Under the pieces are notes generated by a model. That model ran no database searches. It was not told the DNA's origin and saw only the letters and a list, made by a program, of their open reading frames with translations. A DNA stretch of 41,630 nucleotides from UHGV virus genome UHGV-1355554; one strand, written 5' to 3'. Each line of letters starts with the position of its first letter. Positions within the stretch are counted from its first letter, which is position 1. Made by a program: the position numbers and the translations under genes. Shown here in pieces: positions 885 through 41,125 of this stretch. This stretch comes from a virus.

Positions 885-1631
885 TTATTCTTCCGCCATT
901 CTTCGTAATTCACGCTTTCTAACTGATTCATATGTTCTTAACACCTCCTCTTCTGATAGCGGTGGATTTAATGAAATTTGGTTTACATATAAGCTCCATA
1001 CCCTAACCGCGTCATGATCCATTCCTGTTGCGAATAGCTTACCGATTGTTGAGGCTAAAAATATATTCCTTGACCCAGCTCCTGTGCCAGTAAGTATACT
1101 TTCCATTAATTGACCAGTCCATTTCTTCTCTCTCTTCTTATTCTTTTTTGTAATCGTTTTATCTGTAAACATTTCTATCCATTTCTCAGGTAGTTCTGCT
1201 ATTTCTACGTCACGTACTACTTCATAATACTTACCATCAATTTGACTAGGTGGTGCTACAACGTAGCGACCGTGCGTCTGAAAATCAACGCCTTCAAGTT
1301 GTGAATGATTTTGTATAAATTGTGTGTCATTGTATTTTTCATCTAATTTGAAGTAATAGTGCAATCCACCACTTGGAGTCTTAATGACTTGCGTTTTTGG
1401 TAGAGTAATGTCATACGTATCTAAGAACTCTTTTAAGTTACCAAGACCATCTACTCCATTATGGTTGTCAATGTCAATGACTGCAATTCCACTTTTTGAT
1501 CCCGTGAGTGTGCCAACGTTACCCCCTTCTTGCACCCATGATTTAATCAACTCTTCTGATTCTCCATCAAACGCTCCAGCCACTAGAGGTGCTTTACCAT
1601 TTTTCTGTAGTCTTAATTGTTTCATTGTCAT
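885..1631 (-). CDS. Primase-polymerase (AEP/Prim-Pol N-domain plus PriCT_1 C-domain)
   Basis: Motifs GIAVIDIDNHNG and SGGLHYYF, typical of bifunctional primase/polymerase. C-terminal FLASTIGKLFATGMDHDAV...SLNPPLSEEEV resembles PriCT_1. RBS AGGAGG. Confidence 0.7.
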   Translation of the reverse strand: MTMKQLRLQKNGKAPLVAGAFDGESEELIKSWVQEGGNVGTLTGSKSGIAVIDIDNHNGVDGLGNLKEFLDTYDITLPKTQVIKTPSGGLHYYFKLDEKYNDTQFIQNHSQLEGVDFQTHGRYVVAPPSQIDGKYYEVVRDVEIAELPEKWIEMFTDKTITKKNKKREKKWTGQLMESILTGTGAGSRNIFLASTIGKLFATGMDHDAVRVWSLYVNQISLNPPLSEEEVLRTYESVRKRELRRMAEE

Positions 1632-1635
1632 TCCT

Positions 1636-1682
1636 CCTCTTAGTTATGTACTAAGTATAACACCCCAGTTAAGGGGTGTCAA
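1636..1682 (-). promoter_or_regulatory. Early promoter (TTGACA-17-TATACT) with conserved leader and an embedded 20-bp inverted-repeat operator ACACCCCAGTTAAGGGGTGT (1660-1679)
   Basis: Minus-strand -35 at 1677-1682 and -10 at 1654-1659. The leader TAGTACATAACTAAGAGGAGG matches the other early cassettes. The inverted repeat fills the spacer. Confidence 0.5.
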
Positions 1683-1702: not shown

Positions 1703-3007
1703 TTATTTTACACTCTCCTCTATCATTTCATTGGTAAAATCTTTTCCATTTGTAACTGTCTCAAAGATCTTTTTCTCAATTTGTGTATCTGGAATAATGT
1801 GGATAAAATTAGGTGTACACTCCTGACCAAATCTATCAACTCTAGCTTTTGCCTGAATATAGTCTGTAGAACTTAATGGCATAGAATTGAATACGCATAC
1901 ACTAGCTATTTTCAAGCTATTGATGCCTGTACTAGCACTTTTATATTGGGCTAAAACCACTCCATTATCATAGTCTTTGAAATTAGTCAAATCTTTATTA
2001 TTTCCATTATAACTACTATATGGTCTTTTTAGTTTATTCAACAGTTCTGAAATCATATAAAACTCTGCGTTGTAATTATAAAATATGACCACTCGTTCAC
2101 CACTGTATTCTTCTAGTACTGCTTGTAAACGCTCAAACGGTTCTTTAGACACCTGTTTGTGTACACCTTTAAGAAAACCATGTGATATTTGACGTAGGGC
2201 GTTAAATAATTTACTACTATTGTCTAGCTCAATAATATTATCTAGGTCGTCTTTGTACATTCTGACTTTCTTTAATTTATTATAAAACGCAGGCTTTTTG
2301 GTCTTATAATAAAAATCTTGTGGCATATATGGTTTATCACGTTCATACCTAACACTTACTTTATCAATCATTTGTTTCAATAAGTGCTCGTTGCGGTAAC
2401 CAATAATCTGCATGAATCTAGCGGATCCCATTTGTTGCATGCGTTCAGTTACAAATAATTCATAGAACTCTTTTTTTGGCTTGCGGAACACATTTAACAT
2501 GTGAAGTTGACTATAATAGTTTTCTAGTTTTCCGTTTGCTACTGGTGTTGCAGTTAATAATCTAACGTGAGTGGTCTTTTTACATAAATTCATCATGAAT
2601 TTTGTTACCTTTGATTTTGGTACTGACACCTTATGGCTTTCGTCAATTATGATGTATGTGTTTTTATCAACCCAGTTTGTCAATTCAGTTAAGCGCCAAC
2701 TACTCTCAAAGCTAATGGCTACCCTGTCTGACTCTGACAATAGTTGTTTATTTTTAGTAGTTCCTTTATTTAAAGGGGTAATGGTAATTCCCATTAATTG
2801 ACCATCTTCTGCAAAGTCAGCTACTTTTGGAGCTAGACAAACCACTAGCAATTTACTACAGCCACTTTTCAAGTAGGCTCCAAGTGCTGAGTACGTTTTT
2901 CCAGTTCCAGCGGATGATAAGTCAAAGTTCTTTTTATCAGATAATTCAATAGCTTCTACTTGATGTGGAAGAAGTTCTACTTTACCTATTTTATTCTGCA
3001 TATTCAA
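1703..3007 (-). CDS. SF2 (DEAD/DEAH-like, SNF2-type) DNA helicase
   Basis: Walker A SSAGTGKTYSA, motif II IIIDESH, and C-terminal helicase motifs (QAKARVDRFGQ). Confidence 0.75.
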   Translation of the reverse strand: MNMQNKIGKVELLPHQVEAIELSDKKNFDLSSAGTGKTYSALGAYLKSGCSKLLVVCLAPKVADFAEDGQLMGITITPLNKGTTKNKQLLSESDRVAISFESSWRLTELTNWVDKNTYIIIDESHKVSVPKSKVTKFMMNLCKKTTHVRLLTATPVANGKLENYYSQLHMLNVFRKPKKEFYELFVTERMQQMGSARFMQIIGYRNEHLLKQMIDKVSVRYERDKPYMPQDFYYKTKKPAFYNKLKKVRMYKDDLDNIIELDNSSKLFNALRQISHGFLKGVHKQVSKEPFERLQAVLEEYSGERVVIFYNYNAEFYMISELLNKLKRPYSSYNGNNKDLTNFKDYDNGVVLAQYKSASTGINSLKIASVCVFNSMPLSSTDYIQAKARVDRFGQECTPNFIHIIPDTQIEKKIFETVTNGKDFTNEMIEESVK

Positions 3008-3680
3008 AAGTGTAGCCTCCTGTTTGCTTTTGCTCGTTGTTTAAACATCGTCTCAGCCCTGTTCTACGCACATTAAGCTTTTCAGCTGTTGCGGTTTGAT
3101 TGTGACTATATATCACCTCTCCTGTTTCAATATTAGTAGCTTTGAATAATCTCCCACCTAATGTTTTAGATATTTTATCTCGTGTATCAACTGATAGTTT
3201 TCTACCACGGAGTGCCTCGCTTTTAGCCTTAATGTGTTCAGATGACTGAGGTCTACCTTTTAATTTTGACTCATGCATTAAGTAGTGATTTCTAAGACCT
3301 TTACTGATATTACTCCTCTTTTCTAATGTCCAATTTATATTTTTACTACGTACACTCTGTTGTTTTTTAAATTCTTTGGAATGTTTCATACCTCTTGCTG
3401 GACAGTCACCTCCTACAGATATGTTATATCCATATTGCTGGTCTGTAGTATTGTATTTATTAATCAACTTAATCTCTAGTAGACACGCCTCCGTTTTTGT
3501 TAATCCTTCTTTTATAATAAAGTGATTGAAATTTTCCCACCCATATTTTAATATTGAGTTTTTAAAATGCTTACTACTATAATTTTTTCCATTATTCCAT
3601 CTCTTCAGTGGATTTTGTGACGTTATTCCAAAATATTTTTTATTGTTTACTCTGTTAACATGTAAATATACTATATACAT
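2991..3680 (-). CDS. GIY-YIG homing endonuclease
   Basis: N-terminal YIVYLH...KKYFGITS (GIY-YIG motif). NUMOD-like basic repeats. C-terminal ...TGGYTFEYAE tail shared with the HNH homing-endonuclease DNA-binding domains in this window. Confidence 0.8.
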   Translation of the reverse strand: MYIVYLHVNRVNNKKYFGITSQNPLKRWNNGKNYSSKHFKNSILKYGWENFNHFIIKEGLTKTEACLLEIKLINKYNTTDQQYGYNISVGGDCPARGMKHSKEFKKQQSVRSKNINWTLEKRSNISKGLRNHYLMHESKLKGRPQSSEHIKAKSEALRGRKLSVDTRDKISKTLGGRLFKATNIETGEVIYSHNQTATAEKLNVRRTGLRRCLNNEQKQTGGYTFEYAE

Positions 3681-4610: not shown

Positions 4611-4662
4611 CCTCCTTTTTATCTTATGAACTAAGTATATCATGATAAAAAAGAAAGTCAAC
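4611..4662 (-). promoter_or_regulatory. Early promoter-leader cassette (TTGACT-16/17-TATACT plus TAGTTCATAAGATAAAAAGGAGG)
   Basis: Same architecture and leader as the cassettes at 7861-7913, 36541-36592 and 37290-37338. Confidence 0.45.
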
Positions 4663-4690
4663 AGATAATGTCAACTTTCTTTCAAAATCA

Positions 4691-4909: not shown

Positions 4910-6501
4910 TATTTTTCCTCCACGTCATTGAAAATATTTACATACTCTGTCCCTGCTAGTGCATTCATTAAATATGGTCTGATTGACTCATTGTCTCCGT
5001 TACGTGCAATTTTTAGACCAGTTAGTACGCGGGCTTTACTTGTCCGTTTTTCTTCAAAGCCTTGTTTGAGTAATAGCTCTTTCATTGTACGCCAGTTCAT
5101 TGATTTATTAATATTATTCTCTTTCGTGTACACGTTAAAGATATTCTTCAATAGTGTTAGATTAACAGTTCCTTCTTCATCTTCTACAATAACAGGTACT
5201 TCACTCAAAAACTCTTTAGATGGATCGTTTGATTCAATGTAAGCTTTCTTGAAGGCAATCATATCTTCTGTTTCTGTGAATGGGTTTTCACCATTTGTGC
5301 CTGCGTCTAAAATCTTTTTGAATTGTTGAATGCAGAACCATGCAAATTTACCTAGTTGCTCTTTTGACTCACGTTCTTCACGTTGTTTGTTGAACTCATT
5401 GATTCGTTCACGTGCTTCTGGTGTGTCAAGATTGGTATTAAAGTTTAGAATCAGAATACGTCTATACCATCCATTTGTGCGGTCGTTAAATGCAGGTAGT
5501 TCATTCATTGAGAACATTAACTTAGCATAGTTGGTGAAACTGAAAGCGTCTTTACCTTTTTTCTCAGCGTGAACAGCGTCAAGACCTCCTGAAAGTTTTT
5601 TCAGTGTTTCCGTACCTTTTACAAAGTTGGCACTTGAATCCGCTTCAAAGTTTAGTAATTTATGGTGCAATGAAGCTTTGTCAAAACGATTGTTTTTATC
5701 TGCTAAGCTGTCTAGTCCAACTGCTGAGCTATTTTTGAAACCAATCAATTTGTTCATGATAAATCCACCTACATATGATTTACCATTTGATCCATTACCC
5801 AACAGATATAAGATAGATTGATATTTGTATTCTCTATAATACATGTAACCAATGTATTCATATAATGTCTGCGCTTGGTCTTTTAATAGATAGTCAATCC
5901 ATTGTTTGGCTAGTAGTTCGTCTGTCTCATCTGTTTTAATTAAAGGATATGGGAGTTGAAGTGTGTGGTAATCTTCTAATTTGGTTTCTCTGATATCATT
6001 TGTTTTAAAGTCATATGTGCCATTCTCAAAAGCAATAATATTTGGGTTAGGGTTGTCACCTAGTGGGGCATGCTCACCACGTGTCATGGAGCGATTAGCC
6101 AACTCAGGAGCTAATTTCTTCATTTCTTTACGTATCTCATTCCCAAACTCTGGATTTCTGAATTGTGGTGTGAATTTTGGCGCTAAAATATTTTCAAAGT
6201 ACCAATCAGAATATTTGTAACTACCTAGATTAATTTCAGCCCAAATGCGTGTGTCAGCGTTGTATACATATGGCGCGTTTAAATTAGGATGAGCGTACAC
6301 ATAAGCTAGTTGGTTAAATTTTTCAATAAATAATTCCTGTTGAATCTCAAATTTTGGCTGTGTACCGTCTTTACCACCGTAGTACATTCTTCCTACTTCT
6401 GAATTGAAGTCTACAAACTCCTCACTTGGAAAGTTTTTGTTTGACACTGGTAGTAATTCCTCAACTGGTGCTGAGTAATCTATTTTCGTTAGTTCATTCA
6501 T
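4909..6501 (-). CDS. D5-like primase C-terminal / SF3 helicase (phage-plasmid P4 primase type)
   Basis: Walker A LLGNGSNGKSY and Walker B region FSMNELP. Start taken at the internal ATG 6501 (MNELTKIDY...) preceded by AAGGGGGAA. The track's 6579 start would cover the gene's own promoter. Confidence 0.75.
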   Translation of the reverse strand: MNELTKIDYSAPVEELLPVSNKNFPSEEFVDFNSEVGRMYYGGKDGTQPKFEIQQELFIEKFNQLAYVYAHPNLNAPYVYNADTRIWAEINLGSYKYSDWYFENILAPKFTPQFRNPEFGNEIRKEMKKLAPELANRSMTRGEHAPLGDNPNPNIIAFENGTYDFKTNDIRETKLEDYHTLQLPYPLIKTDETDELLAKQWIDYLLKDQAQTLYEYIGYMYYREYKYQSILYLLGNGSNGKSYVGGFIMNKLIGFKNSSAVGLDSLADKNNRFDKASLHHKLLNFEADSSANFVKGTETLKKLSGGLDAVHAEKKGKDAFSFTNYAKLMFSMNELPAFNDRTNGWYRRILILNFNTNLDTPEARERINEFNKQREERESKEQLGKFAWFCIQQFKKILDAGTNGENPFTETEDMIAFKKAYIESNDPSKEFLSEVPVIVEDEEGTVNLTLLKNIFNVYTKENNINKSMNWRTMKELLLKQGFEEKRTSKARVLTGLKIARNGDNESIRPYLMNALAGTEYVNIFNDVEEK

Positions 6502-6521: not shown

Positions 6522-6558
6522 ATGAGTATAGCACAAACTTTTCATTTGTGCTATACTT
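6522..6558. promoter_or_regulatory. 13-bp perfect inverted repeat AGTATAGCACAAA / TTTGTGCTATACT. Both arms carry the TGTGCTATACT extended -10 motif and overlap the promoter of the D5-helicase gene.
   Basis: Read directly. On the minus strand the motif lies about 20 nt upstream of the RBS. Confidence 0.45.
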
Positions 6559-6562
6559 TTGA

Positions 6563-7003
6563 CTAAAAATATTTAGCAATTGATTCCACTGAATCTTTCA
6601 CGTCTAATTGAGTGCCGTCTGACAGTATGACAATTGTGTATTCCCAAGCTTTGTTGTGATAGAATGCTGCAATGTGACTAATGTTTACATATAAGGTGGT
6701 TTCATCAATTCTGGTTAATGTGATTAGTTCGTTCGTTTTATTCATTAAACGTTCTGCTTCTTCTAGTGCTGTAGCTAACTTTAAATACTCGTCTTTTTCT
6801 TTTCTAAATATATCTCCAGTCATTAATGTAAATATATTTCCTGCGTCAGTTAACTTCTCAAGTTCATATATTTTTCCTAGATCATCACGCACTGCCAGTT
6901 TACCCTCATCGCTTGTCTGAATAGTATACACTTTGAATTGTGTAATCCAAGGGCTTGTTGATTTGCTACAAACAACTGTGTCATTCTCTTTAAAATTAAC
7001 CAT
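6563..7003 (-). CDS. Hypothetical protein (146 aa), KOW/SH3-like N-domain paralog
   Basis: N-terminal VVCSKSTSPWITQFKVYTI resembles the 7003-7302 product. Confidence 0.5.
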   Translation of the reverse strand: MVNFKENDTVVCSKSTSPWITQFKVYTIQTSDEGKLAVRDDLGKIYELEKLTDAGNIFTLMTGDIFRKEKDEYLKLATALEEAERLMNKTNELITLTRIDETTLYVNISHIAAFYHNKAWEYTIVILSDGTQLDVKDSVESIAKYF

Positions 7004-8570: not shown

Positions 8571-8900
8571 TAGTGACAAAACAGTGACATTAATTTTGTC
8601 ACTGTTTTTTACAGTAAAAATACTATTATATCAACGTTTGTGAAACCAGTTTTAGCAAAATGACGCAATGACAAAAAATAATTTATTTAAGCCCATATAT
8701 CTATGTTACTACATTATAATGTAGTATTATAATTTATTTTTTTTAATATAATATATTTTGTCATTTTGTCATTATAAAAATAAGAATGTAGATATATCAA
8801 GTGATACAGCGTTTTTATGTGTTAAAATAAGTGACAAAACGATGACAAAAACAAGCGAATTAGTGACAAAATGACAATTTTAGGCTGATTTTTTGTCACT
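8571..8900. repeat. Iteron cluster: at least 10 copies of (G/A)TGACAAAA in both orientations, plus the hairpin CAGTGACA-TTAATTT-TGTCACTG followed by T6
   Basis: Copies at about 8574, 8585, 8595 (inverted), 8662, 8669, 8757 and 8765 (tandem inverted), 8831, 8842, 8863, 8872 and 8891 (inverted). Candidate origin or operator array. Confidence 0.6.
8707..8726. repeat. Perfect 20-bp palindrome TACTACATTATAATGTAGTA, followed by a roughly 35-bp pure A/T tract
   Basis: Reverse complement is identical. The adjacent TTATAATTTATTTTTTTTAATATAATATATTTTG resembles a DNA-unwinding element. Confidence 0.6.
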
Positions 8901-10383: not shown

Positions 10384-10657
10384 ATCAACAACCGCACAGT
10401 CAAAATTATTTTTAGGGAGACCCAAAATGTTTTTACCCCCTACCTTTTTATAACGAATTAATCGCTGCCCCCTCTTCTTCGCACAAAAGTCCCAAAACCA
10501 ACTTTGAAAAACGTCCTTTTCCCTCGTAAAACGTAATAAAAAACTGGTTTCTTGTGTTGAAACACAAGGATTCACACTACATCTAGTATGCTATTTCCCT
10601 TTAACGAGTATTCCCCCAATAAACAAGATTGAAGCTGGTTTCTTTACACAAGATTCT
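10384..10657. other. Candidate cos/packaging-site region: non-coding, C-tract rich, with direct repeats
   Basis: C-tracts TTACCCCCCTACC, GCTGCCCCCTCTTC, TTCCCTCG and TATTCCCCCAAT. Repeats CTGGTTTCTT...ACACAAG (10544-10570 and 10634-10655), a CTTGTGTT-GA-AACACAAG palindrome and AAAACGT x2. Sits between the HNH and terminase genes. Confidence 0.3.
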
Positions 10658-10730
10658 TTTTATATGATATAATAAAACTATATAAGGGATTTTTTATTTA
10701 AATCAAAATTAACGTAAGGGAGGTAGAACA

Positions 10731-10972: not shown

Positions 10973-11169
10973 ATGGAAGAAATTTGGAAAGATGTTGAAG
11001 GATATGAAGGTTTATATCAAGTAAGTAATTTTGGAAGAGTGAGGAGTCTAAAGAGTTCTATGGAGCTAGTGAATGTGCTAGACAATTAGGATTAAACCCA
11101 TCACACGTGTCAGAAGTTATAAATGGTAAACGTAATCACACTGGTGGATACACATTCAAATACAAATAG
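10973..11169 (+). pseudogene. Decayed NUMOD4/HNH_3 homing endonuclease: an N-terminal 29 aa joined out of frame to a C-terminal 36 aa, with the catalytic core deleted
   Basis: MEEIWKDVEGYEGLYQVSNFGRVRSLKSS... then, in another frame, ...YGASECARQLGLNPSHVSEVINGKRNHTGGYTFKYK*. Compare the intact copies at 24625, 36771 and 40604. Confidence 0.6.
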
Positions 11170-11646: not shown

Positions 11647-11684
11647 CATACACAAAACTAAAAGTTTGTGGTATAATGGGTACA

Positions 11685-15780: not shown

Positions 15781-17013
15781 TTGAATCGTGAAGAGCAAAT
15801 CAACAAGGCACATGATTTATTGTCAGATGGCAAATTTGAAGAAGCACGTAGTTTAGTTGAAGCCATTAAAAAACAAGACGCAGAAGAGTTAGAAAAAAAA
15901 GCTTCTGACAAAAAGCCTGACGAAGATAAAAACGTTGAAGAAACAAAAGATGAAGAAAAAGAAGAACCAAAAGAGCAAGAACCAGAAAAAAAAGAAGAAA
16001 AAGAACCAGAAAAAAAAGAAGAAAAAGAACCAGAGAAAAAACAAAAAGATGAAGAAAAACGCTCATTAGAGCAAAAAGGAGAAGAAAAAAATATGGAAAA
16101 AGTAGTGTTAGATGGAAAAGAAATCTCTCAACCAGAAACAGAAGTTCGTGGATTTTTAAATTATGTACGTTCTCATAACCCTAAAATGGACTTGCGAGCG
16201 CTTCCAGAAGGTGTAAAATCAACGGATGTGGGTGCTATTATCCCTCAAGATATTGTCACAAAAACAAAAATGTTACCTGAAACAGTTGTGGATTTACGAA
16301 ATCTAGTTCAAACAGTGAAAGTAAGCACACCTACAGGTAAATACCCTATTTTGAAATCAACAGAAGCAGTAATGCACACTGTTGAAGAACTTGAAGCAAA
16401 TCCAGACTTGGACAAACCACAATTTGACAATGTATTATATGATGTTGATACTTATCGTGGACAAATTCCAGTTTCTCGTGAATCTTTAGACGATTCAGAT
16501 GAAGATTTAGGCGCTTTAATTGCACGTCATATTCAGCGCATTGCATTGAATACAGCCAACTCTAAAATTGTTGAAAACTTGAAAACAGCAACACCTAAAA
16601 CTGTTAAGAATTTGGATGAAATCAAAGCAATCATCAATACTGAGTTTGACCCAGCATACAACTTACAGTTTATTGTATCTCAATCATTCTACAATGAAGT
16701 AGACTTAATGAAAGACAATGAAGGACGTTACCTGTTACAACCTTCAATCACTGCTCAATCAGGAAAATCTCTACTTGGTTTGAATGTGACTGTACTATCT
16801 GATAAATTGCTAGGCGGTTCAGCAGGAGCTAAAGTAGCATTCTTAGGTGATCCAGCTGGATTTACATCATTCTTTGACCGTAACGAAATGGCAGTCCGTT
16901 GGCAAGAACATCAACATTATGGTGAAATTCTAGCAGCAGCAATGCGTTTTGACGTTAAAAAAGTAGACGCAGCAGCTGGTAAATTCTTAACTCTTGCGCC
17001 AGCGGTAAAGTAA
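15781..17013 (+). CDS. Major capsid protein (HK97 fold) with an N-terminal KE-rich delta/scaffold domain; TTG start
   Basis: No separate scaffold gene. Roughly the first 110 aa are Lys/Glu-rich with a tandem EPEKKEEK repeat. The C-terminal 300 aa are HK97 MCP-like. Confidence 0.85.
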   Translation: MNREEQINKAHDLLSDGKFEEARSLVEAIKKQDAEELEKKASDKKPDEDKNVEETKDEEKEEPKEQEPEKKEEKEPEKKEEKEPEKKQKDEEKRSLEQKGEEKNMEKVVLDGKEISQPETEVRGFLNYVRSHNPKMDLRALPEGVKSTDVGAIIPQDIVTKTKMLPETVVDLRNLVQTVKVSTPTGKYPILKSTEAVMHTVEELEANPDLDKPQFDNVLYDVDTYRGQIPVSRESLDDSDEDLGALIARHIQRIALNTANSKIVENLKTATPKTVKNLDEIKAIINTEFDPAYNLQFIVSQSFYNEVDLMKDNEGRYLLQPSITAQSGKSLLGLNVTVLSDKLLGGSAGAKVAFLGDPAGFTSFFDRNEMAVRWQEHQHYGEILAAAMRFDVKKVDAAAGKFLTLAPAVK

Positions 17014-18701: not shown

Positions 18702-18762
18702 TTAAACACAAACACTTAATAATGTGCTATAATTACTATAGAAACAAAATAAAACAAAGGAC

Positions 18763-24624: not shown

Positions 24625-25152
24625 ATGAAAGAAATTTGGAGAGATATTGAAGATTATGAAGGTCTCTATCAAGTTAGTAATTTTGGAAGGGTTAAGAGCC
24701 TAAAGCATTCTAAGGAAGGTAAAATACTTAAAGGACGAGTTACAGGTAAAGGTTATTTATCAGTAGTATTATTTAGAAATTCAGTTAGAAAATCAAATAG
24801 TATTCACCGTTTAGTAGCACAAGCATTTATACCAAACCCCGCAAATAAACCTGAGGTTAATCATATTGACGAAAATAAACTTAACAATGATGTAAGTAAT
24901 TTAGAATGGGTTACCTCAAAAGAAAATAGTAATCATGGAACTAGAAACCTCAGAATACATCAAAATAAAGCGGTAACATATAATAGGAAACCAATTATAT
25001 GTGTAACAAATGGTGTAACATATGCAAGCTTAACTGAGGCTTGTAAAAGTTTGGGAGTAACAAAACCCCATGTATGTTCAGTATTAAAAGGTAAACGTAA
25101 GACAACAAAAGGATATGTTTTTAAATACTTAAATGAAGGAGATAATAACTAA
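24625..25152 (+). CDS. HNH homing endonuclease (NUMOD4 plus HNH_3)
   Basis: MKEIWRDIEDYEGLYQVSNFGRVKS. HRLVAQAFIPNP...VNHIDENKLNN...NLEW. Confidence 0.85.
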   Translation: MKEIWRDIEDYEGLYQVSNFGRVKSLKHSKEGKILKGRVTGKGYLSVVLFRNSVRKSNSIHRLVAQAFIPNPANKPEVNHIDENKLNNDVSNLEWVTSKENSNHGTRNLRIHQNKAVTYNRKPIICVTNGVTYASLTEACKSLGVTKPHVCSVLKGKRKTTKGYVFKYLNEGDNN

Positions 25153-31704: not shown

Positions 31705-31740
31705 AATTTAAAGTGCTCAGAATGATCGTGAGAACATCAT
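31705..31740. repeat. Lysis-cassette boundary motif B: AATTTAAAGTGCTCAGAATGATCGTGAGAACATCAT
   Basis: Partner of 29962-29997. Overlaps the stop codon of the PnuC gene. Confidence 0.5.
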
Positions 31741-32438
31741 TTTTTATCATGATTAAACCAATTTGATACAGTGAAAGCAATAATATTATTAGCTAGGTAT
31801 AACGTATATGTGAAGAACAGTACCCAAACGGCATGACCATCAATAGCTGTTACTAACCATAATACAATGCTCATGATACCTTGTGTGAACCAGAAATAAT
31901 ACTGCGCTGAAAACTGGCGGACACATAGGAAAGCACCTGTAAATCCAATTGTAGCACTTAAAGCGTCAATAAACGGGCGTGGTGAACTTAAAACGATTGT
32001 ATCAAGCCCATACAATAAAGCAAAGGTTGCACTGAAAAATAATAGTGTTTGAAGTTTATGTTTTGTTTGTAATTTACGTGGGTTAAATACTTTCCATTTA
32101 CCTAAGATAATTGGAATATCCAACAACAAAATATAAGCTAGTTGCATTAAGATGTCACTATAGTTACCAGTAACCATTGCCACATAACACAGTAATAAAG
32201 CAGATACGAAGCCTAGAATACCATTAATTGGTTTACCTTCTGTAATAGCTAACGTACATGTAAATCCTAACATACCCGCAATTGTACTGGTGAATGATAA
32301 CAGTGTTAAGCCATCTTTAAATCCAATAAGGAATAAGAATAACAAACCAACCCCCAAAAGAATATAGCTTTGTTTATGCCACCCTTTAAATTGCTTTTTG
32401 TAATATTTATATGTTAATAATTGAGTAATGTTTTCCAT
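31737..32438 (-). CDS. PnuC-like nucleoside / nicotinamide-riboside transporter
   Basis: 233 aa, about 7 TM segments, Trp-rich C-terminal helices. Adjacent to the deoxynucleoside kinase gene. Confidence 0.6.
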   Translation of the reverse strand: MENITQLLTYKYYKKQFKGWHKQSYILLGVGLLFLFLIGFKDGLTLLSFTSTIAGMLGFTCTLAITEGKPINGILGFVSALLLCYVAMVTGNYSDILMQLAYILLLDIPIILGKWKVFNPRKLQTKHKLQTLLFFSATFALLYGLDTIVLSSPRPFIDALSATIGFTGAFLCVRQFSAQYYFWFTQGIMSIVLWLVTAIDGHAVWVLFFTYTLYLANNIIAFTVSNWFNHDKK

Positions 32439-32477: not shown

Positions 32478-33281
32478 TTAATATAATTTTTTATTATCTG
32501 TAAACTGGCTTAGCTCATGAAAGGGCATTTTACCAGCGGAATAATTATATAAGTCTAAACCATATTTATTGGCGTTCTTCATATTCCATTTTACGCCGTT
32601 TAGTTTAGCTAGTGTGTATACCGCTTCAACCGTACTTAACGCGTTCACTTCATGAAGCTTATAAATAATTTGTGTAAGCAGTTCTATACGGTCTTGCTTA
32701 CAATTTACATAATCATAAGAAGTTACGTCTAAAACAATTTTTGGAAATCCTAAGTCTTTATCTATCCATTTCTGATAATTTTCGTGATGTCTTTTGAAGT
32801 ACTCAAATAGTTCAGTACCTTCTTCAACCTTTTCAAACTCTCTAGCACGTGTGTTAATGCGTTTAATTTCTTCTTCAAATGTGCAGTTTAAGACAATCAT
32901 TAAATCTGGTGTTTTCTTTGGTAATGGTTCTAATTCTTTTAACATACGATTTAATAATCTATGATAAACTTGTTGTTCCAGTTCGCTTACATGTCCTTCC
33001 TGCACCAACTGGTCTAAAAAGATAGAGTCTTCAAAAATGGAACGGTCTAAAATACCATTGTTAATACTCATAGCCTCTTGAATCATTTCAAATCGTTTAC
33101 TTAACATATCAATCTGAAACAATAAACCATATTTTGCTTTGTCTTGATAAAACAATTCAAGCATTGGATTTTCTTCAACAGGTTCATAGACTGCTTTGGT
33201 CTCCAGTAACTCACTTAATAATTGTGTCATTGAGGATTTACCTACCCCAATTGGTCCAGCTAATGTAATAATCATAATCAA
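32478..33281 (-). CDS. Deoxynucleoside kinase with a roughly 50-aa C-terminal extension
   Basis: P-loop GPIGVGKSS, YEPVEENP, LDRSIFEDSIF (DRS motif) and lid RINTRAREFE. Confidence 0.8.
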   Translation of the reverse strand: MIMIITLAGPIGVGKSSMTQLLSELLETKAVYEPVEENPMLELFYQDKAKYGLLFQIDMLSKRFEMIQEAMSINNGILDRSIFEDSIFLDQLVQEGHVSELEQQVYHRLLNRMLKELEPLPKKTPDLMIVLNCTFEEEIKRINTRAREFEKVEEGTELFEYFKRHHENYQKWIDKDLGFPKIVLDVTSYDYVNCKQDRIELLTQIIYKLHEVNALSTVEAVYTLAKLNGVKWNMKNANKYGLDLYNYSAGKMPFHELSQFTDNKKLY

Positions 33282-33290
33282 ATCCTTTCA

Positions 33291-33512
33291 TTATTTTAAA
33301 TTTTTCAAGTTTTGAGGTTGAAACCCCATTGCAATCAACTCACCATTATTAAAAACTACTGGTAATGTTCTAAGGTTGTTAGCCATTAAATAATTATAGG
33401 CATCTAAGTCCTCCTCTACATTTACCTCTTTAAAATCTAAGTTATTATTTTTCAGCCAGTTTTTTGTGAATTTGCAGGCTACGCAGTTTGTCTTTGAGTA
33501 CACTTTAATCAT
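33291..33512 (-). CDS. NrdH-like glutaredoxin
   Basis: MIKVYSKTNCVACK (CxxC). ATG at 33512 with AAAAGGAGG. The track's start at 33551 lies inside the promoter. Confidence 0.7.
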   Translation of the reverse strand: MIKVYSKTNCVACKFTKNWLKNNNLDFKEVNVEEDLDAYNYLMANNLRTLPVVFNNGELIAMGFQPQNLKNLK

Positions 33513-33570
33513 TTGTATTCCTCCTTTTACTTTATGAATTAAGTATAACACCTCAGTTAAGAGGTGTCAA
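33513..33570 (-). promoter_or_regulatory. Early promoter (TTGACA-17-TATACT) plus leader, with embedded inverted-repeat operator ACACCTCAGTTAAGAGGTGT (33548-33567)
   Basis: Same architecture as 1636-1682. The operator arm differs by a compensatory C>T / G>A pair. Confidence 0.5.
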
Positions 33571-33574
33571 GTGT

Positions 33575-35866
33575 TTAGTCAATGTAGTTTCTGACACTAG
33601 GCGTCTTGTATCCGAGTTTACTTCTTTTGGCATGTGCTTGCTCAATCCTCTCTTTCCACGTTGCACCAAACCACATTACTAGTAAATCCTCTACCTGGTT
33701 TATATAGTACTCTTTATCAATATCATCAAGAGTTATCCATCCTTCACCAATAGCTTCATTGTCAATGGCGTAATATTCAGGAGCATTAGGTAAACCTTTA
33801 GTGTATGAATCATCACCAACAATCGTTGTGCCTTCCTCTTCAATTACAGCTCCTCGTTTCACCTTGAATATTTCAACAGCTTTATTAGGGTCTTTTATTG
33901 CAAATGTACGGTTTACTTTTTGTGCTTTCTTTTCATTACCTTCACTATCACGTACAATAGTATCATCAAATGTCCAGCCAGTTTTAGTAATCATTTGGAA
34001 CTGACGTAGTTCGTCGCATTCATTGATAAACTCTTTATAGTCTTTACCAGCAACTACATAGTTAATGAATGCATTTGAAACAATTGCTTTAGATACTTTC
34101 AAACCATTTGTTAAACCAATAGCACCTTTAAACTTCACTTTTCCATCAGTTGTGACAGCCAAGTAATTATTTACATTGGCTTGATATATTTCTCTGAACG
34201 GATCATCATCTAATGTGTAACCTGTTCGTTTCATCCAATCATTTGCAATCTCATCAATGGCTTTTTCATCTTCTTCACTGAATGGAATATAATAATGTGC
34301 GTCTGTGTTTGATTGAATAATAGTAGCGTGGTCTTCAATCTTTTCTAGTAAATCCCACATGGCCATCTGTCCAGTAATACATACTAATAACCTCATGCGC
34401 GGATCATATAGTTTATTAAACTCAGCTCCCATTGCACCATATTTAGTATTTAGAGGTAGTTTGTAACCATTAATCAATAACTTAGTTGGAATCTGAACGC
34501 CTTTAATTTCAGTAAATTCTTTATTAGAATACTTAGCTTCCATCCGTTCATCTAATAACATTTGATAGATATGCCGCTTATCTTCTGGGATGTTTCTTGA
34601 TAAGTAGTCAAACAATACCATTGTATTTGGATACAACGAACCTACGTCACGTGCGTGGAAGTTTCCTACATGAATAAATGACTCTTTAGCTCCATGAATA
34701 CCACCTACTCCTAAAACCTCTGTTACGTCTCTACGTGGTACATCTAATGAAATGCTGGCATGTCCTTTTTCATTAGCTTCAAAATCATCTGTCATAAACG
34801 CCTGACGGATTGTCTCTGACTCAATTTCAAAACCTTCTGGCAGTTCATACTTGTCTAACTCGTCACCTCTATCAGGTGTTTTTTCAGCCCCTAATAATTC
34901 AGCAGTCAAGTTTGCGTTAGTCATTGAGAGTGCCATTTTATCTAAACCAAAATATAAGGCAATTGCAGCTTTAGCTACTAACATACCTATGTTTTGTTCA
35001 AAGCGTTTTTCCGTAGCTAACACGTCATTTTTACAATATAGCTCGTTCAATACTTGTTCTTCTTCAGTTAGTTCTCTATCTAAATCAAAGTCTACTTCAG
35101 TTTCTTTAATATTAATACCCATGAACGCACTATGTTCTTTCAAACTAAAACCCCTATTGTCTTGATACAAATCCATCCCAAACAGTGGTGTTTTCTTAGT
35201 ATCAAACATTTTATATACTAATGCTCTATCATCACTTTCAATAATCGCTTTTGACACATGAAATGGATTTTTACCTTGTAAATATGCACGCATGACATTG
35301 GAATCATATGAGTGTGAGTTATAACCAACAAATAATGAATCTCTATTCGCTAGATAGAACTTGCGTAACGCATCTAAATCATTATGAATAACTGTCCATT
35401 CTTTAGTGAAGTAATCTCTAAAGACAAATAAATTATCTTTTTTAAATACTTCAATATCATAAATATAAATTGTTTGGTTGGTTAGTGCCTCATTTGGTTT
35501 CTCAGGTAAATCTTCAAGCACTGCTCCTTTTTGATTTATGGTTACATTTGGGAAACCATTGTTGTATTTTAGAGTGATGTTTAGTTGCTGTCCAACTTCT
35601 ATATTTTCCCACGTTTTCCAATCTTGTTTACGAAACTTCATAATATAGATAGTAGCATCTCTACCATCTTTTAAACTTCTAAGCTTAATCTCACGCATTT
35701 TTTTACCTTTTGCAGATAAACGTTCCTCTGATTTAATAACTACAACTTGATGGACACCTTCTACTAGCGGATCAAAACTCTTGGCATTGCCTGCAAGTGC
35801 TGCGAATATTTCTAATAGCTTACTTGCTAACTTTTCAGCACCTTTGAATTCTGCAATATTTTTCAT
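33575..35866 (-). CDS. Family-B DNA polymerase with 3'-5' exonuclease domain
   Basis: Exo I YIYDIEV, Exo II YNSHSYDSNVM, Exo III YCKNDVLATEK. Pol motif A DVGSLYPN, motif B-like KLLINGYKLPLNTKYG, motif C region SNTDAHYY. Confidence 0.8.
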   Translation of the reverse strand: MKNIAEFKGAEKLASKLLEIFAALAGNAKSFDPLVEGVHQVVVIKSEERLSAKGKKMREIKLRSLKDGRDATIYIMKFRKQDWKTWENIEVGQQLNITLKYNNGFPNVTINQKGAVLEDLPEKPNEALTNQTIYIYDIEVFKKDNLFVFRDYFTKEWTVIHNDLDALRKFYLANRDSLFVGYNSHSYDSNVMRAYLQGKNPFHVSKAIIESDDRALVYKMFDTKKTPLFGMDLYQDNRGFSLKEHSAFMGINIKETEVDFDLDRELTEEEQVLNELYCKNDVLATEKRFEQNIGMLVAKAAIALYFGLDKMALSMTNANLTAELLGAEKTPDRGDELDKYELPEGFEIESETIRQAFMTDDFEANEKGHASISLDVPRRDVTEVLGVGGIHGAKESFIHVGNFHARDVGSLYPNTMVLFDYLSRNIPEDKRHIYQMLLDERMEAKYSNKEFTEIKGVQIPTKLLINGYKLPLNTKYGAMGAEFNKLYDPRMRLLVCITGQMAMWDLLEKIEDHATIIQSNTDAHYYIPFSEEDEKAIDEIANDWMKRTGYTLDDDPFREIYQANVNNYLAVTTDGKVKFKGAIGLTNGLKVSKAIVSNAFINYVVAGKDYKEFINECDELRQFQMITKTGWTFDDTIVRDSEGNEKKAQKVNRTFAIKDPNKAVEIFKVKRGAVIEEEGTTIVGDDSYTKGLPNAPEYYAIDNEAIGEGWITLDDIDKEYYINQVEDLLVMWFGATWKERIEQAHAKRSKLGYKTPSVRNYID

Positions 35867-36770: not shown

Positions 36771-37319
36771 TTAATCTACTCCTTTATATTTGAATGTGTA
36801 TCCACCAGTTTGTCTGCGTCTACCTTTTAGAACTGATGTAATATTTCCTGAATTAAGTCCCAATTGTCTAGTGCATTCGTTAGTACTATTGAACTTCGTA
36901 GACTCGCCAGTCGTTAGATTAGTTGCAATGATTGGAATACTATTCGTTTTAGCCATTCTTTCATTACGTGTTCCGTGATTAATATTTTCCTTAGTAGTCA
37001 TCCATTCTAAATTTGGAACTTTATTGTTAGTTTTATTCTCGTCTATATGATTAACATCTGACTTATTTTCCGGGTTTGGTATGAATGCTTGAGCTACTAG
37101 ACGATGGATTCTCTTAGTAGATCCAATATTGTTTTTATATAAGTTAACTACTAGATAGCCAGTGATATGTTTACTTCCCTTCAAAATTCTATCAGTATAT
37201 GAACTCTTAACCCTCCCAAGAGCACTAACCTGATACAACCCTTCATATCCTTCAATATCTTTCCAAATCTCTTCCATTTTTATCTTCCTCCTCTTTATCT
37301 TACAAGTTAATTTTAACAT
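36771..37319 (-). CDS. HNH homing endonuclease (NUMOD4 plus HNH_3)
   Basis: [53 protein letters not shown]...NLEW...GGYTFKYKG. Confidence 0.85.
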   Translation of the reverse strand: MLKLTCKIKRRKIKMEEIWKDIEGYEGLYQVSALGRVKSSYTDRILKGSKHITGYLVVNLYKNNIGSTKRIHRLVAQAFIPNPENKSDVNHIDENKTNNKVPNLEWMTTKENINHGTRNERMAKTNSIPIIATNLTTGESTKFNSTNECTRQLGLNSGNITSVLKGRRRQTGGYTFKYKGVD

Positions 37320-37338
37320 GAATACAAAAAGAAGTCAA
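37310..37338 (-). promoter_or_regulatory. Early promoter cassette (TTGACT-17-TAAAAT plus leader TAACTTGTAAGATAAAGAGGAGG) for the HNH gene
   Basis: Read directly. The -35 element overlaps the terminator stem at 37328-37358. Confidence 0.45.
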
Positions 37339-37358
37339 CCATTTAGGCTAACTTCTTT
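37328..37358. terminator. Bidirectional terminator (AAAGAAGT...ACTTCTTT, A-run and T-run flanks) between the SSB-like gene and the HNH gene
   Basis: Read directly. Confidence 0.45.
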
Positions 37359-37368
37359 TACATTTATT

Positions 37369-38061: not shown

Positions 38062-38143
38062 TTTAATTTCCTCCAATTAATTTGTTTTATTTTCTCTCTT
38101 ACAAAATCTATTATATCATATATTCCCTTACTTGTGTAGCCTA

Positions 38144-38962: not shown

Positions 38963-39438
38963 AATGATACCCTCCTACACTTTTACGTTTTCCACGTATA
39001 ACTCTACTTAAATCACCATTGTCAACATTTAGTTTTTTAGCACAGTCAATTAGACTGTCATATATTACACCTGTTTCTAAACATCTTATTTTAATTGAGT
39101 TGTTTTGACTTGATCGTTTGTTTCTAGTTCCATGATTTGCGTTTTCTTTTGCAGTAACCCATTCTAAATTATCAACTCTGTTGTTTGTTTTATCCTCATC
39201 AATATGATTTACTTGTGGCTTGTTTTCTGGATTGGGTATGAACGCTTGCGCTACTAAACGATGAATATTAACTCTACGCTTATTTTTTTCTATTACTTAG
39301 GTGTACATTCAAGTATCCCGTTTTGTGTGTATTGTAAGATAGTTGTTTATTAGTATACTTTCTACGAACATTTCCTAAGTTGCTAACTTCATATACATCT
39401 TCATATGATTCAATATCACGCCATACTTCGTTCTGCAT
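38946..39438 (-). pseudogene. HNH homing endonuclease (NUMOD4/HNH_3) interrupted by a +1 frameshift in an A7 run (plus-strand T7 at 39283-39289)
   Basis: MQNEVWRDIESYEDVYEVSNLGNVRRKY...HLSNRKK*, then out of frame ...[32 protein letters not shown]...GGYHFEKVN. No ORF of 60 aa or more in the track. Confidence 0.7.
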
Positions 39439-39598
39439 TAACCTCATCCTCCATCTGAAGGCGTTTATACTCTACTGCAAAAAGTTCATCAATCGTATAA
39501 TTTAATTTGAATAACCATTTGTATTTTTCAATTATAGCAAACAGCTGGTTTTCAGTGTATCCATAATCTAATTTCAAAAGGGTTTTATAGTTCATCCT

Positions 39599-39861: not shown

Positions 39862-40617
39862 TCATCTTACTAACCAGTTGTCAACATCTTTTTGAGTTAT
39901 TTTTCCTTTTGAACGTTTAATTAACCCCTCAAAAGTGCGATATGTTTCTGACTGGTGTAGTTCTACATTAATCATATCAGGTTTTCCAAATTTGTCAACA
40001 AATAACTCTCTTTCTGTTGTACTCAAGTGACGGTAACTACCATTACTAAACACGTCATATCCAGTGTGCGTTTTAGTTGATTCGTAAAATTCAATGACTT
40101 TAGGGTCATAATTAGCTTCAAGCAATAGTATATCAATCTTTATATCATTTTCCAAAAGATACTTTTCATAGTCTGTCATTGTACTTAAATCAGTGGCAAA
40201 CAGAGTGTTTTGGTTAGGGGTCTCCATAATGAAACCATGTGTTTCTGCATACTCTTCTCCAGCTCCATGATAATTCTGAAGTGTTGTGAACTTAACTTCA
40301 CCAATTTGAAATTGGAAGTCCTCTTTGAATATAAGGTCTAATTGTGGTAAGCTACGTTTTTTCAAGTTGTCTTGTACTTCTTGATTACCTAATATTTGAA
40401 TATGTGGAAAGTTTTCTCTAATCTTTTTATATGTTGTATATACAAGATGATCTTGGTGGCGATGAGTTAACAAAATAAATTGCTTGTTAAATAAATAGGG
40501 CTCAATGTGTTTATATGGCTTCCCTATGTCAATTAAGAATCCTAAATTATCATAATAGATAGAGGCGCAGTTTCCTTTACTTCCTGTATAGTGAATATCA
40601 AAACTAAATTCGTTCAA
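39862..40617 (-). CDS. MBL-fold metallo-hydrolase
   Basis: [11 protein letters not shown] (HxHxDH). TTG start 8 nt after GGAGG is assumed. The track's start at 40632 overlaps the HNH gene. Confidence 0.65.
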
Positions 40618-41125
40618 TGTGCCAACCTCCAACTGTTTTACGTTTACCAGATATTACATCTGATACATGTCCGCTTGATAAACCATATTTTAAACAAAAT
40701 TCTTTCTGAGAATTATATTTTTCTTTGATGTTACTTTTAGTACAAATGATAGGTTTACTATTTGTTATACACATTCTTTTTATTGCAGTGCCATGATTTC
40801 TATTCTCTTTATTTGTCATCCACTCTAGGTTGTATACCATGTTATTAGTCTTATCCTCATCAATATGGTTTACCTGTGGTTTATTTTCAGGGTTTGCTAT
40901 GAAAGTTTCTGCTACTAGACGGTGAATTGTCTTAGTAGATTGAATACCATTTTTAGATAATCCAACTCTTAAATATCCTTTCCTATTTACTGATGGTTTC
41001 AAAATCCTATCCGTAGTATTGGTATTGTTTACAGTATGCCGTTTCAAAGATTTAACTCTCCCTAAATTACTTACTTGATATCTACCTTCATATCCTTCAA
41101 TATCTTTCCAAACTTCTTCACTCAT
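40604..41125 (-). CDS. HNH homing endonuclease (NUMOD4 plus HNH_3)
   Basis: [54 protein letters not shown]...NLEW. Confidence 0.85.

Follow-up and report, generated by a model that had tools for sequence, protein, structure and literature searches.

Why do two promoters of one phage genome, 31.9 kb apart, each carry a single 20-bp inverted repeat in the region of their -35/-10 spacer? This question is raised by UHGV-1355554, a viral genome of 41,630 nucleotides (the window, by which we mean the whole stretch of DNA analysed), where the repeats lie ahead of a PrimPol gene and ahead of a glutaredoxin/NrdH-like gene. The original prediction regarded them as a dimeric-protein site or a hairpin through which the replication genes are co-regulated. 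We found that selection on the stem as a nucleic-acid structure is well supported, and that the operator/co-regulation interpretation is not supported. On balance, we think it probable that each site is a composite promoter/attenuator cassette of the promoter-early stem-loop (PeSL) type, placed at the boundaries of transcription units and modules.

We indeed confirmed that the two repeats, ACACCCCAGTTAAGGGGTGT at 1660-1679 and ACACCTCAGTTAAGAGGTGT at 33548-33567, are one compensatory pair apart, and they are the sole matches in the window at up to three mismatches (0.01 expected); the proposed search of the rest of the genome revealed no further copy. Both dyads sit in minus-strand TTGACA-N17-TATACT promoters, and the neighbouring genes are all on the minus strand. 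In cassette 1 (1682..1654), the -35 element TTGACA occupies 1682-1677, the dyad ACACCCC-TTAACT-GGGGTGT 1679-1660 and the -10 element TATACT 1659-1654. In cassette 2 (33570..33542), the corresponding positions are 33570-33565 for TTGACA, 33567-33548 for the dyad ACACCTC-TTAACT-GAGGTGT and 33547-33542 for TATACT. The 29-nt cores of the two cassettes differ solely at two paired positions, C:G in the first and T:A in the second. The dyad had been placed exactly between the hexamers, which proved inaccurate: at 20 nt it is longer than the 17-nt spacer, and its first three nucleotides (ACA) are the end of the -35 element while its last three (TGT) supply the TGn of an extended -10. With 11 of 12 hexamer positions matching the consensus, a 17-nt spacer and the TG, both sites have the makeup of near-consensus sigma-70-type early promoters.

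The -35 element begins 20 nt (cassette 1) and 4 nt (cassette 2) past the upstream stop codon, and dyad 2 begins 8 nt past that of the DNA polymerase gene. Upstream of the -35 element, where an AT-rich tract would be looked for in a PeSL-type cassette, site 1 has AAAATAAAAATAAATG, and site 2 adjoins the coding end of the polymerase. Downstream, a leader with a Shine-Dalgarno sequence follows in each case (TAGTACATAACTAAGAGGAGGA at 1632..1653 and TAATTCATAAAGTAAAAGGAGGAATACAA at 33513..33541, both on the minus strand), within which transcription is predicted to start near A1649/A1647 and near A33535, respectively. The Shine-Dalgarno sequence and ATG lie within ~45 nt downstream of both cassettes, which are therefore intergenic and on the strand of the genes around them. 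The likeness of the two sites extends to ...TATACTTArTwCATAA and reaches 84% over 50 nt (repeat family D6). Since it continues beyond the dyad, sites 1 and 2 are paralogous cassettes and not merely carriers of a common operator.

To which kind of selection do the arms respond? The window is a complete, circularly permuted Enterococcus siphophage genome (a relative aligns over the 1/41630 junction), and it belongs to the IME-EFm1/EFm5, Aramis, KEN and 9184 group, with 80-90% nucleotide identity. From IMG/VR we collected 26 loci with PrimPol homologues and another 18 with polymerase homologues; one of the latter (L281) ends within the polymerase gene, and 17 reach the cassette 2 junction. Among ~40 relatives we distinguished 15 cassette variants. 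Both promoter hexamers are invariant over these variants and the loop varies, occurring in seven forms (TTAACT, TTAATT, TCAATT, TTAAAT, AATTAA, AATTAT and GTAACT). The inner stem occurs in four forms, all of them complementary: CCCC/GGGG, CCTC/GAGG, CCCA/TGGG (L269) and CCCT/AGGG (Staphylococcus phages). Counting of pairs over the variants showed that 97% of cells are paired, compared with 31-55% in slid registers. Changes on both sides were seen at two pairs (9 cells), and the observed score was reached by none of 500 shuffles. Unpaired cells were found solely at the outer positions 1 and 3, which overlap promoter elements, and one of them (L251) is a G.U pair. A scan of IMG/VR with arm positions 5-7 left free returned only perfectly paired family members, and hence no one-sided transition from which the strand could be read.

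These data bear directly on the choice between a dimeric-protein site and a hairpin. The hairpin half of that proposal is favoured, as the arms stay paired in all four versions of the stem although the loop is free to drift; the dimer half is disfavoured, because base pairing demands symmetric double changes and a dimeric protein does not. An operator, at which a dimeric DNA-binding protein of the phage or its host would repress the two promoters and co-regulate replication genes, is in our view improbable. Repressor operators are classically found as palindromes within the spacer of an otherwise optimal promoter, hardly any change is seen at the outer ACACC/GGTGT positions, and many small early open reading frames (ORFs) have no assignable function. 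However, arm positions 6 and 7 change only as complementary pairs, in four versions and around a drifting centre, from which a single dimer gains nothing, and two variants coexist in one genome.

Comparison of the same junctions in close relatives argues in the same direction. The closest relative (L238), whose PrimPol is 98% identical in the best segment, has a PrimPol promoter without the dyad; in its place is the hairpin TTGACAAGTATAGC-TAATCAT-GCTATACTTG, with a 10-bp stem that includes the -10 element. A hairpin of the same type is present at the PrimPol junction of L246 (CAAGTATAGC...GCTATACTTG), and L259 has CTACTATATCA...TGATATAGTAG. At the polymerase junction of the more distant phage DELF1, GCCCUUGA-UUUUAUG-UUGAGGGC lies over a TTGATT -35 element. 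Unlike hairpins of similar stability thus occur at the same junctions, which favours a structural role and disfavours a sequence-specific operator.

The genes next to the cassette vary as well. At the polymerase junction, the cassette lies 4 nt past the stop codon in 14 of 17 loci, and in the other three an extra gene separates polymerase and cassette (which reads as an HNH endonuclease gene in L265 and L268). In L264, the promoter and the NrdH Shine-Dalgarno sequence are separated by an inserted HNH gene, so that HNH genes occur on either side of cassette 2 among relatives. The CCCC version is found in most relatives at the PrimPol junction, where L239 carries CCTC instead; phage 9184 has CCCC at the polymerase junction. 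Such swapping of stem versions in L239 and 9184 indicates that the two paralogues exchange. At least nine distinct first genes follow the cassette in relatives, encoding PrimPol, two NrdH alleles, a Dam-like methylase, two HNH endonucleases and ORFans (63-91 aa). These variable first genes, the HNH insertions and the cassette swaps in L238 and L239 associate the element with gene gain, loss and replacement.

This diversity does not agree with co-regulation confined to replication genes. In relatives, the cassette also precedes the unrelated Dam-like methylase, HNH endonuclease and ORFan genes; the PrimPol promoter of L238 is different, and site 2 is not a polymerase promoter. Site 2 had been assigned to an NrdH/DNA-polymerase operon, of which only the NrdH part holds: because the site lies after the DNA polymerase stop codon, it would drive the NrdH-like, deoxynucleoside kinase and PnuC-like genes and not the polymerase. 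The absence of the element from the other early cassettes applies to this particular dyad, but at least three of them carry hairpins of their own.

No candidate for a cognate regulator emerged. Pfam scans of 30 minus-strand early proteins revealed no helix-turn-helix or repressor domain, although unannotated small proteins could still hide one. The suggested search of host genomes was carried out with TTGACACC-N10-GGTGTTATACT, the pattern in its promoter context, against the genomes of 185,579 species (one each). It gave 30 matches, of which none was in an Enterococcus or Staphylococcus chromosome and one was a phage-like 3.4-kb contig of a metagenome-assembled genome (MAG). A resemblance to NrdR boxes had also been noted. 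The NrdR box (acaCwAtATaTwGtgt), as reportedly described by Rodionov and Gelfand in 2005, is a palindrome of 16 bp; ahead of nrd genes, such boxes commonly stand in tandem, about three helical turns apart. The ACAC...GTGT ends are indeed common to both, but searches with 16-bp and 18-bp consensus sequences missed both dyads (the 16-bp form was unmatched at up to three mismatches), and each site has a single dyad without a tandem box. We therefore rejected the NrdR box as a candidate.

If the stem is a structure, is it stable enough to matter and in which nucleic acid would it act? The 29-mers fold at -15.7 and -13.6 kcal/mol, and they are the only ones to fold among 13 promoter-like strings in the window, the rest being at -1.6 kcal/mol or weaker. 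For the 20-mers, the folding energies are -10.5 and -12.6 kcal/mol, comparable to those of the canonical terminators of this genome; extension by U-A and G.U pairs brings the hairpins to -13 to -15 kcal/mol. The z-scores of the two hairpins are -3.4 and -3.95. Owing to G.U pairs, the sense RNA of all seven hairpins that we examined is more stable than the antisense RNA, the difference being 1.4 to 8.5 kcal/mol, and this preference points to RNA made by read-through from upstream. We infer that the promoter fires and that the hairpin acts in RNA.

The two cassettes are members of a larger set in the window, in which repeat families D6, D8, D10 and D12 connect ~8 early cassettes. Stems are found in the spacer (the two cassettes described above), over the -35 element (4650-4683 and 37327-37359) and over the -10 element (6525-6557), which amounts to repeated copies in several positional subclasses. 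Sister cassette P4661 (4634..4683, minus strand) has the hairpin GAAAGAAAGTTGACA-TTATC-TGTTGACTTTCTTT at 4683-4650, with a stem of 14-15 bp, the -35 element TTGACT in its 3' arm and a TATACT -10 element. P37338 (37310..37359, minus strand), which precedes an HNH endonuclease gene, has the same layout, with AAAAGAAGTTAGCC-TAAAT-GGTTGACTTCTTTT at 37359-37327, TTGACT in the 3' arm and TAAAAT as the -10 element. In both, the T-run falls in the spacer, and the hairpins have z-scores of -3.9 and -4.9. Judged by these features, P4661 and P37338 look like ordinary intrinsic terminators fused to promoters. A third sister cassette (6525..6557, minus strand) is a hairpin with 13-bp arms that carries an extended -10, TGCTATACT, in its 3' arm and lies directly past the stop codon of the gene at 6563..7003, ahead of the primase ATG at 6501. 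Some 20 nt upstream of P8556 there is also a stem (8578-8608) that resembles a terminator.

Taken together, these features suggest how such a cassette may work. A host sigma-A promoter close to the consensus (TTGACA, a 17-nt spacer and TG-n-TATACT) would be joined to a GC-rich hairpin that fills its spacer, a few nucleotides past the stop codon of a same-strand upstream gene. Polymerase coming from the prior early promoter would transcribe the hairpin: hairpin 1 would be reached from P4661, through the unit that includes the SNF2/DEAD-type helicase gene (1703..3007, minus strand), and hairpin 2 from P36582, through the unit of the DNA polymerase gene (33575..35866, minus strand; named via the annotation of relatives). 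The RNA stem, of 7 bp or of 9 bp with U-A and G.U pairs from TTG/TATA, may then attenuate or end the upstream transcript or shield its 3' end. New initiation ~7 nt beyond TATACT would set the level of the next unit. After cassette 1, this unit begins with the PrimPol gene (885..1631, minus strand; Prim-Pol and PriCT_1 domains in Pfam). After cassette 2, it would comprise the glutaredoxin/NrdH-like gene (33291..33512), the deoxynucleoside kinase gene (32478-33281) and, as the last one, a PnuC-like gene (31737-32438; Pfam NMN_transporter, E = 9e-23), all on the minus strand. The cassette may also mark a boundary for gene swaps among related phages, as it would bring its own stop, start, leader and Shine-Dalgarno sequence.

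Several points weigh against the composite-cassette explanation and have to be considered together. Analogy and position suggest that the hairpin terminates or attenuates transcription, but its poor U-tract makes this part less secure. The 3' tail UAUACUUAGU is U-poor, with a T-score of 2.65 compared with 3.3-4.1 for canonical terminators in this genome and 2.1 for random AT-rich sequence, and the tail TATACTTA, having 4 T in 8, does not make a canonical intrinsic terminator. A consensus terminator scan of the window called neither site, and the annotators of phage 9184 marked terminators elsewhere and none at the dyad. Because of the U-poor tail and the missing terminator call, termination may be partial or absent. 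As to the stem itself, a consensus promoter already supplies three of the seven arm pairs, because ACA and TGT belong to the -35 and extended -10 elements. Template switching between the arms (quasipalindrome correction) can yield symmetric double changes without selection. Moreover, with only four stem versions, independent compensatory events are few (~3).

The weakness of the U-tract would suit a function limited to RNA 3'-end protection or processing, in which the hairpin blocks 3'-to-5' exonucleases or marks a cleavage site and its overlap with the promoter is a matter of compaction. It would then set the stability of the helicase and polymerase mRNAs without stopping RNA polymerase. The location of the hairpin directly past stop codons and the greater stability of the sense-strand RNA are also in line with this explanation. 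However, sister cassettes of the same genome have proper T-runs, and an RB49 stem-loop with an equally U-poor tail strongly lowered downstream expression (PMC2839356). Although sequence alone cannot separate it from attenuation, we regard protection or processing as the sole function of the hairpin as rather unlikely.

The pairs supplied by the promoter and template switching suggest another possibility, namely that the stem has no regulatory role: an ACA/TGT seed would have been extended, kept perfect by template-switch repair and spread through cassette recombination. The 84% identity over 50 nt between the two sites and the gene conversion shown by the variants that swap positions in L239 and 9184 fit such a neutral origin as well as the forced pairs do. 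Against it, the genome has 35% GC, yet the inner pairs are G:C-rich (four of four in the main version, three of four in the others), and in relatives these junctions hold unrelated hairpins that are about as stable. A search of IMG/VR for TTGACAC-N12-GTGTTATACT also counts against it: 22 of 84 distinct 29-mers had spacer-filling arms of 7 bp or more, compared with ~1.3 expected, and many of these 22 stems carry UUCG, UACG or GCAA loops. In the control with an 18-nt spacer (N13), 6 of 57 sites had arms of at least 7 bp. The spacer-stem cassettes from IMG/VR, including those of unrelated phage families, all lie 4-20 nt past the upstream stop codon. We hold a stem devoid of a regulatory role to be an improbable explanation.

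It may also be asked whether the palindrome acts as DNA, in that a cruciform extruded under negative supercoiling would close the promoter. Work attributed to Horwitz and Loeb in 1988 reportedly found such behaviour in a selected E. coli promoter, and the palindrome does fill the spacer here. However, at physiological supercoiling a palindrome with arms of 7 bp and a centre of 6 nt is short for extrusion, and the G.U-dependent stems of the sister cassettes and of DELF1 are impossible as DNA. Such a switch is very unlikely.

How far does the element spread? In the Staphylococcus Sextaecvirus phages SA2, RQ1 and PT1-4, we found a cassette version identical to site 1 at 35 of 39 positions, lying between a PhoH-like gene and a gene for a nucleoside deoxyribosyltransferase or a membrane protein. 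Of 21 minus-strand promoter-like sites in SA2, one is such a copy (L001 2501-2539). In a tblastn comparison of all window ORFs with the first 45 kb of SA2, only the terminase and a GIY-YIG endonuclease were matched and no early protein was shared. This finding again disfavours a phage-encoded repressor as the ligand of an operator, as SA2 has the cassette yet no early protein in common with the window phage. A Staphylococcus version between unrelated genes, together with the recurrence of TTG-ACACCnC(C)...G(G)nGGTGT-TATACT, with UUCG, UACG or GCAA loops, in unrelated environmental phages, raises the possibility, which we advance tentatively, that hairpin-in-spacer promoters are mobile regulatory units, complete in themselves, that pass from phage to phage across host genera. 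In that case, shuffling of the PeSL kind would not be peculiar to one group, the T4-like viruses, but a strategy of phages in general, and the stem might do more than attenuate, for example by coupling the arrival of upstream polymerase to the firing of its own promoter.

Some additional observations concern these distant copies. The SA2 and RQ1 (L002) sequences part right after ...CATAA, where RQ1 has an additional membrane-protein gene, and a 3.4-kb contig of a 'Tissierella' MAG with the cassette (L293) has the look of phage DNA of the RQ1 type that was assigned to a bacterial bin. A further SA2 promoter, TTGACAcaatcaACCCCtagtgaTATACTGGGGT (L313 position 13425, minus strand), has 5-bp arms that bracket the -10 element and may be another cassette with its stem over the -10. 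One unrelated environmental family (L119, L122, L133, L137, L145, L148, L152, L180 and others) has the form TTG-ACACC[U/A/G]CC-UUCG/UACG/UUAG-GG[A/U/C]GGUGU-TATACT, located 16 nt past a MoxR-like AAA ATPase gene and followed by a gene whose product starts with MSH(T/A)DP or MANLDP. Its 8-bp stems are 100% paired, with three pair types at one stem position, and its arm ACACCnCC resembles the Enterococcus type.

For the window phage, composite cassettes of this kind would redraw the transcription map of a group of E. faecium phages under development for therapy. The early, replication and nucleotide genes form a leftward arm of ~18 kb that runs 8500 -> 1 -> 41630 -> 31737, and this arm would be cut into short units, with the DNA polymerase gene and the NrdH, deoxynucleoside kinase and PnuC genes in different ones. 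Stop-and-start units of 29 nt would be compact natural parts for the design of expression in Firmicutes. The case also calls for caution, in that a palindrome in a promoter need not be an operator.

The window has a second class of promoters, ACACAA-N13-TGnTATAAT, with five copies against none expected: 398-425, 10646-10673, 11650-11677 and 18706-18733 on the plus strand and 38110-38137 on the minus strand. Four of them point toward plus-strand structural genes, and the class probably represents middle or late promoters with a non-canonical -35 motif. The first copy, ACACAA-N13-TGCTATAAT (398-425), opens a stand-alone plus-strand unit (398-490) within the minus-strand arm. It is followed by the CU-rich AUUAUAGGGAUUCCUCCUCCCUCCUCUCGUU, which resembles an anti-Shine-Dalgarno sequence, and by a strong terminator, AAGACTAGCC-AATT-GGCTAGTCTT with TTTGTTT (459-490), giving a predicted RNA of ~58 nt. 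Over its full length the unit is 86-100% conserved in 18 of the fetched relatives (at least 92% in 15), and the differences include a compensatory replacement of C:G by T:A in the stem of the terminator. From its sequence and conservation, it is possibly a phage small RNA. No Rfam match near threshold was found for it, nor any Rfam family above threshold anywhere in the window.

Other features of the genome are set down here in brief. With the PnuC-like gene, for a nicotinamide mononucleotide transporter, a virulent-type phage of 41.6 kb carries an auxiliary metabolic gene. At least five NUMOD4/HNH homing-endonuclease paralogues or fragments, recognised through repeat families D1, D7 and D9 and Pfam, lie at 36771-37275, 40604-41125 and ~39000-39450 on the minus strand and at 10973-11166 and 24625-25152 on the plus strand, and a GIY-YIG endonuclease gene is located at 2991-3680. 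The ORF at 15781-17013 (plus strand) holds a Lys/Glu/Pro-rich low-complexity repeat, (E/K)n-EP, at 15869-16101 with a periodicity of 9-15 nt (families D2-D5).

With which known systems, then, should the cassettes be compared? Phage N4 also has a short hairpin within an early promoter. There, however, the hairpin is the promoter itself, extruded in DNA and read by the phage's virion RNA polymerase without -35/-10 boxes; the window boxes follow the host consensus, and no phage RNA polymerase gene was found among the window proteins scanned. NrdR boxes have the ACAC...GTGT ends in common with the dyads, and site 2 precedes an NrdH-like gene. Yet the dyad has 20 bp instead of 16 bp, a GC-rich inner stem instead of an AT core, and a single box.

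Intrinsic terminators have a GC-rich hairpin just past a stop codon, as the window sites do, but these sites lack a U-tract (4 U in the first 8 nt) and the TTNTTT pause motif. In B. subtilis, most intrinsic terminators are aided by NusA/NusG, including those with weak terminal A-U or G-U pairs in the stem (Mandell et al. 2021, PMC8060035). Weak pairs at the base of the stem are linked there to NusG-assisted termination (PMC8060035), and the window stems are likewise extended at their base by U-A and G.U pairs. By this analogy, attenuation is plausible, though not demonstrated.

The closest counterparts are the PeSL cassettes of the T4-like phages RB49/phi1, PST and nt-1 (Arbiol et al. 2010, PMC2839356; Comeau et al. 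2014, PMC4122927). A PeSL consists of a strong sigma-70-like promoter and a stem-loop that is an effective terminator, placed between a stop codon and a Shine-Dalgarno sequence (PMC2839356; PMC4122927), with the stem-loop most commonly between -35 and -10 (PMC2839356). PeSLs fall into five positional subclasses and are associated with indels among close relatives (PMC2839356; PMC4122927). The stem-loop of the RB49 cassette PeSL211/210 cut lacZ expression like rrnB T1 (PMC2839356). Our literature search found no description of a hairpin-in-spacer element in Enterococcus phages, and nothing on spacer hairpins in the LIMEstone and SPP1 papers. The design, described only for T4-like phages of Gram-negative hosts, would now be present in a Gram-positive siphophage and many metagenomic phages.

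There are clear differences. The window is the 41.6-kb genome of an Enterococcus siphophage, whereas the PeSL phages are T4-like myoviruses of Gram-negative hosts, and there is no sequence homology. The window arms have a C-run and then a G-run, overlap the -35 element by ACA, supply the extended -10 TG and enclose a 6-nt AT-rich loop. This stem type is present in two copies only, in the replication/nucleotide module, whereas PeSLs lie in an ORFan-rich hyperplastic region.

In sequence anatomy, nevertheless, the window sites and their sister cassettes match the PeSL description feature by feature. Both systems combine a near-perfect sigma-70-type promoter with a stable stem within or overlapping it, mostly between -35 and -10, and both follow the order of upstream stop codon, cassette and downstream Shine-Dalgarno/ATG. 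Several copies per genome occur in both, with subclasses in which the stem lies over the -35 or the -10 element, and gene content at the cassette sites differs among close relatives in both. When we read the RB49 sequence itself, we found TTGACA-GGGGATCACGTATCCCC-TATACT and four further such cassettes upstream of ORFans 185-210, PeSL211/210 being one of the set, with stems that fill the 17-nt spacer at -10 to -13.6 kcal/mol and tails that, with T-scores of 2.1-2.5, are as U-poor as those of the window sites. The RB49 arrangement TTGACA-GGGGATC...GATCCCC-TATACT is equal in design to window positions 1654-1682 and 33542-33570.

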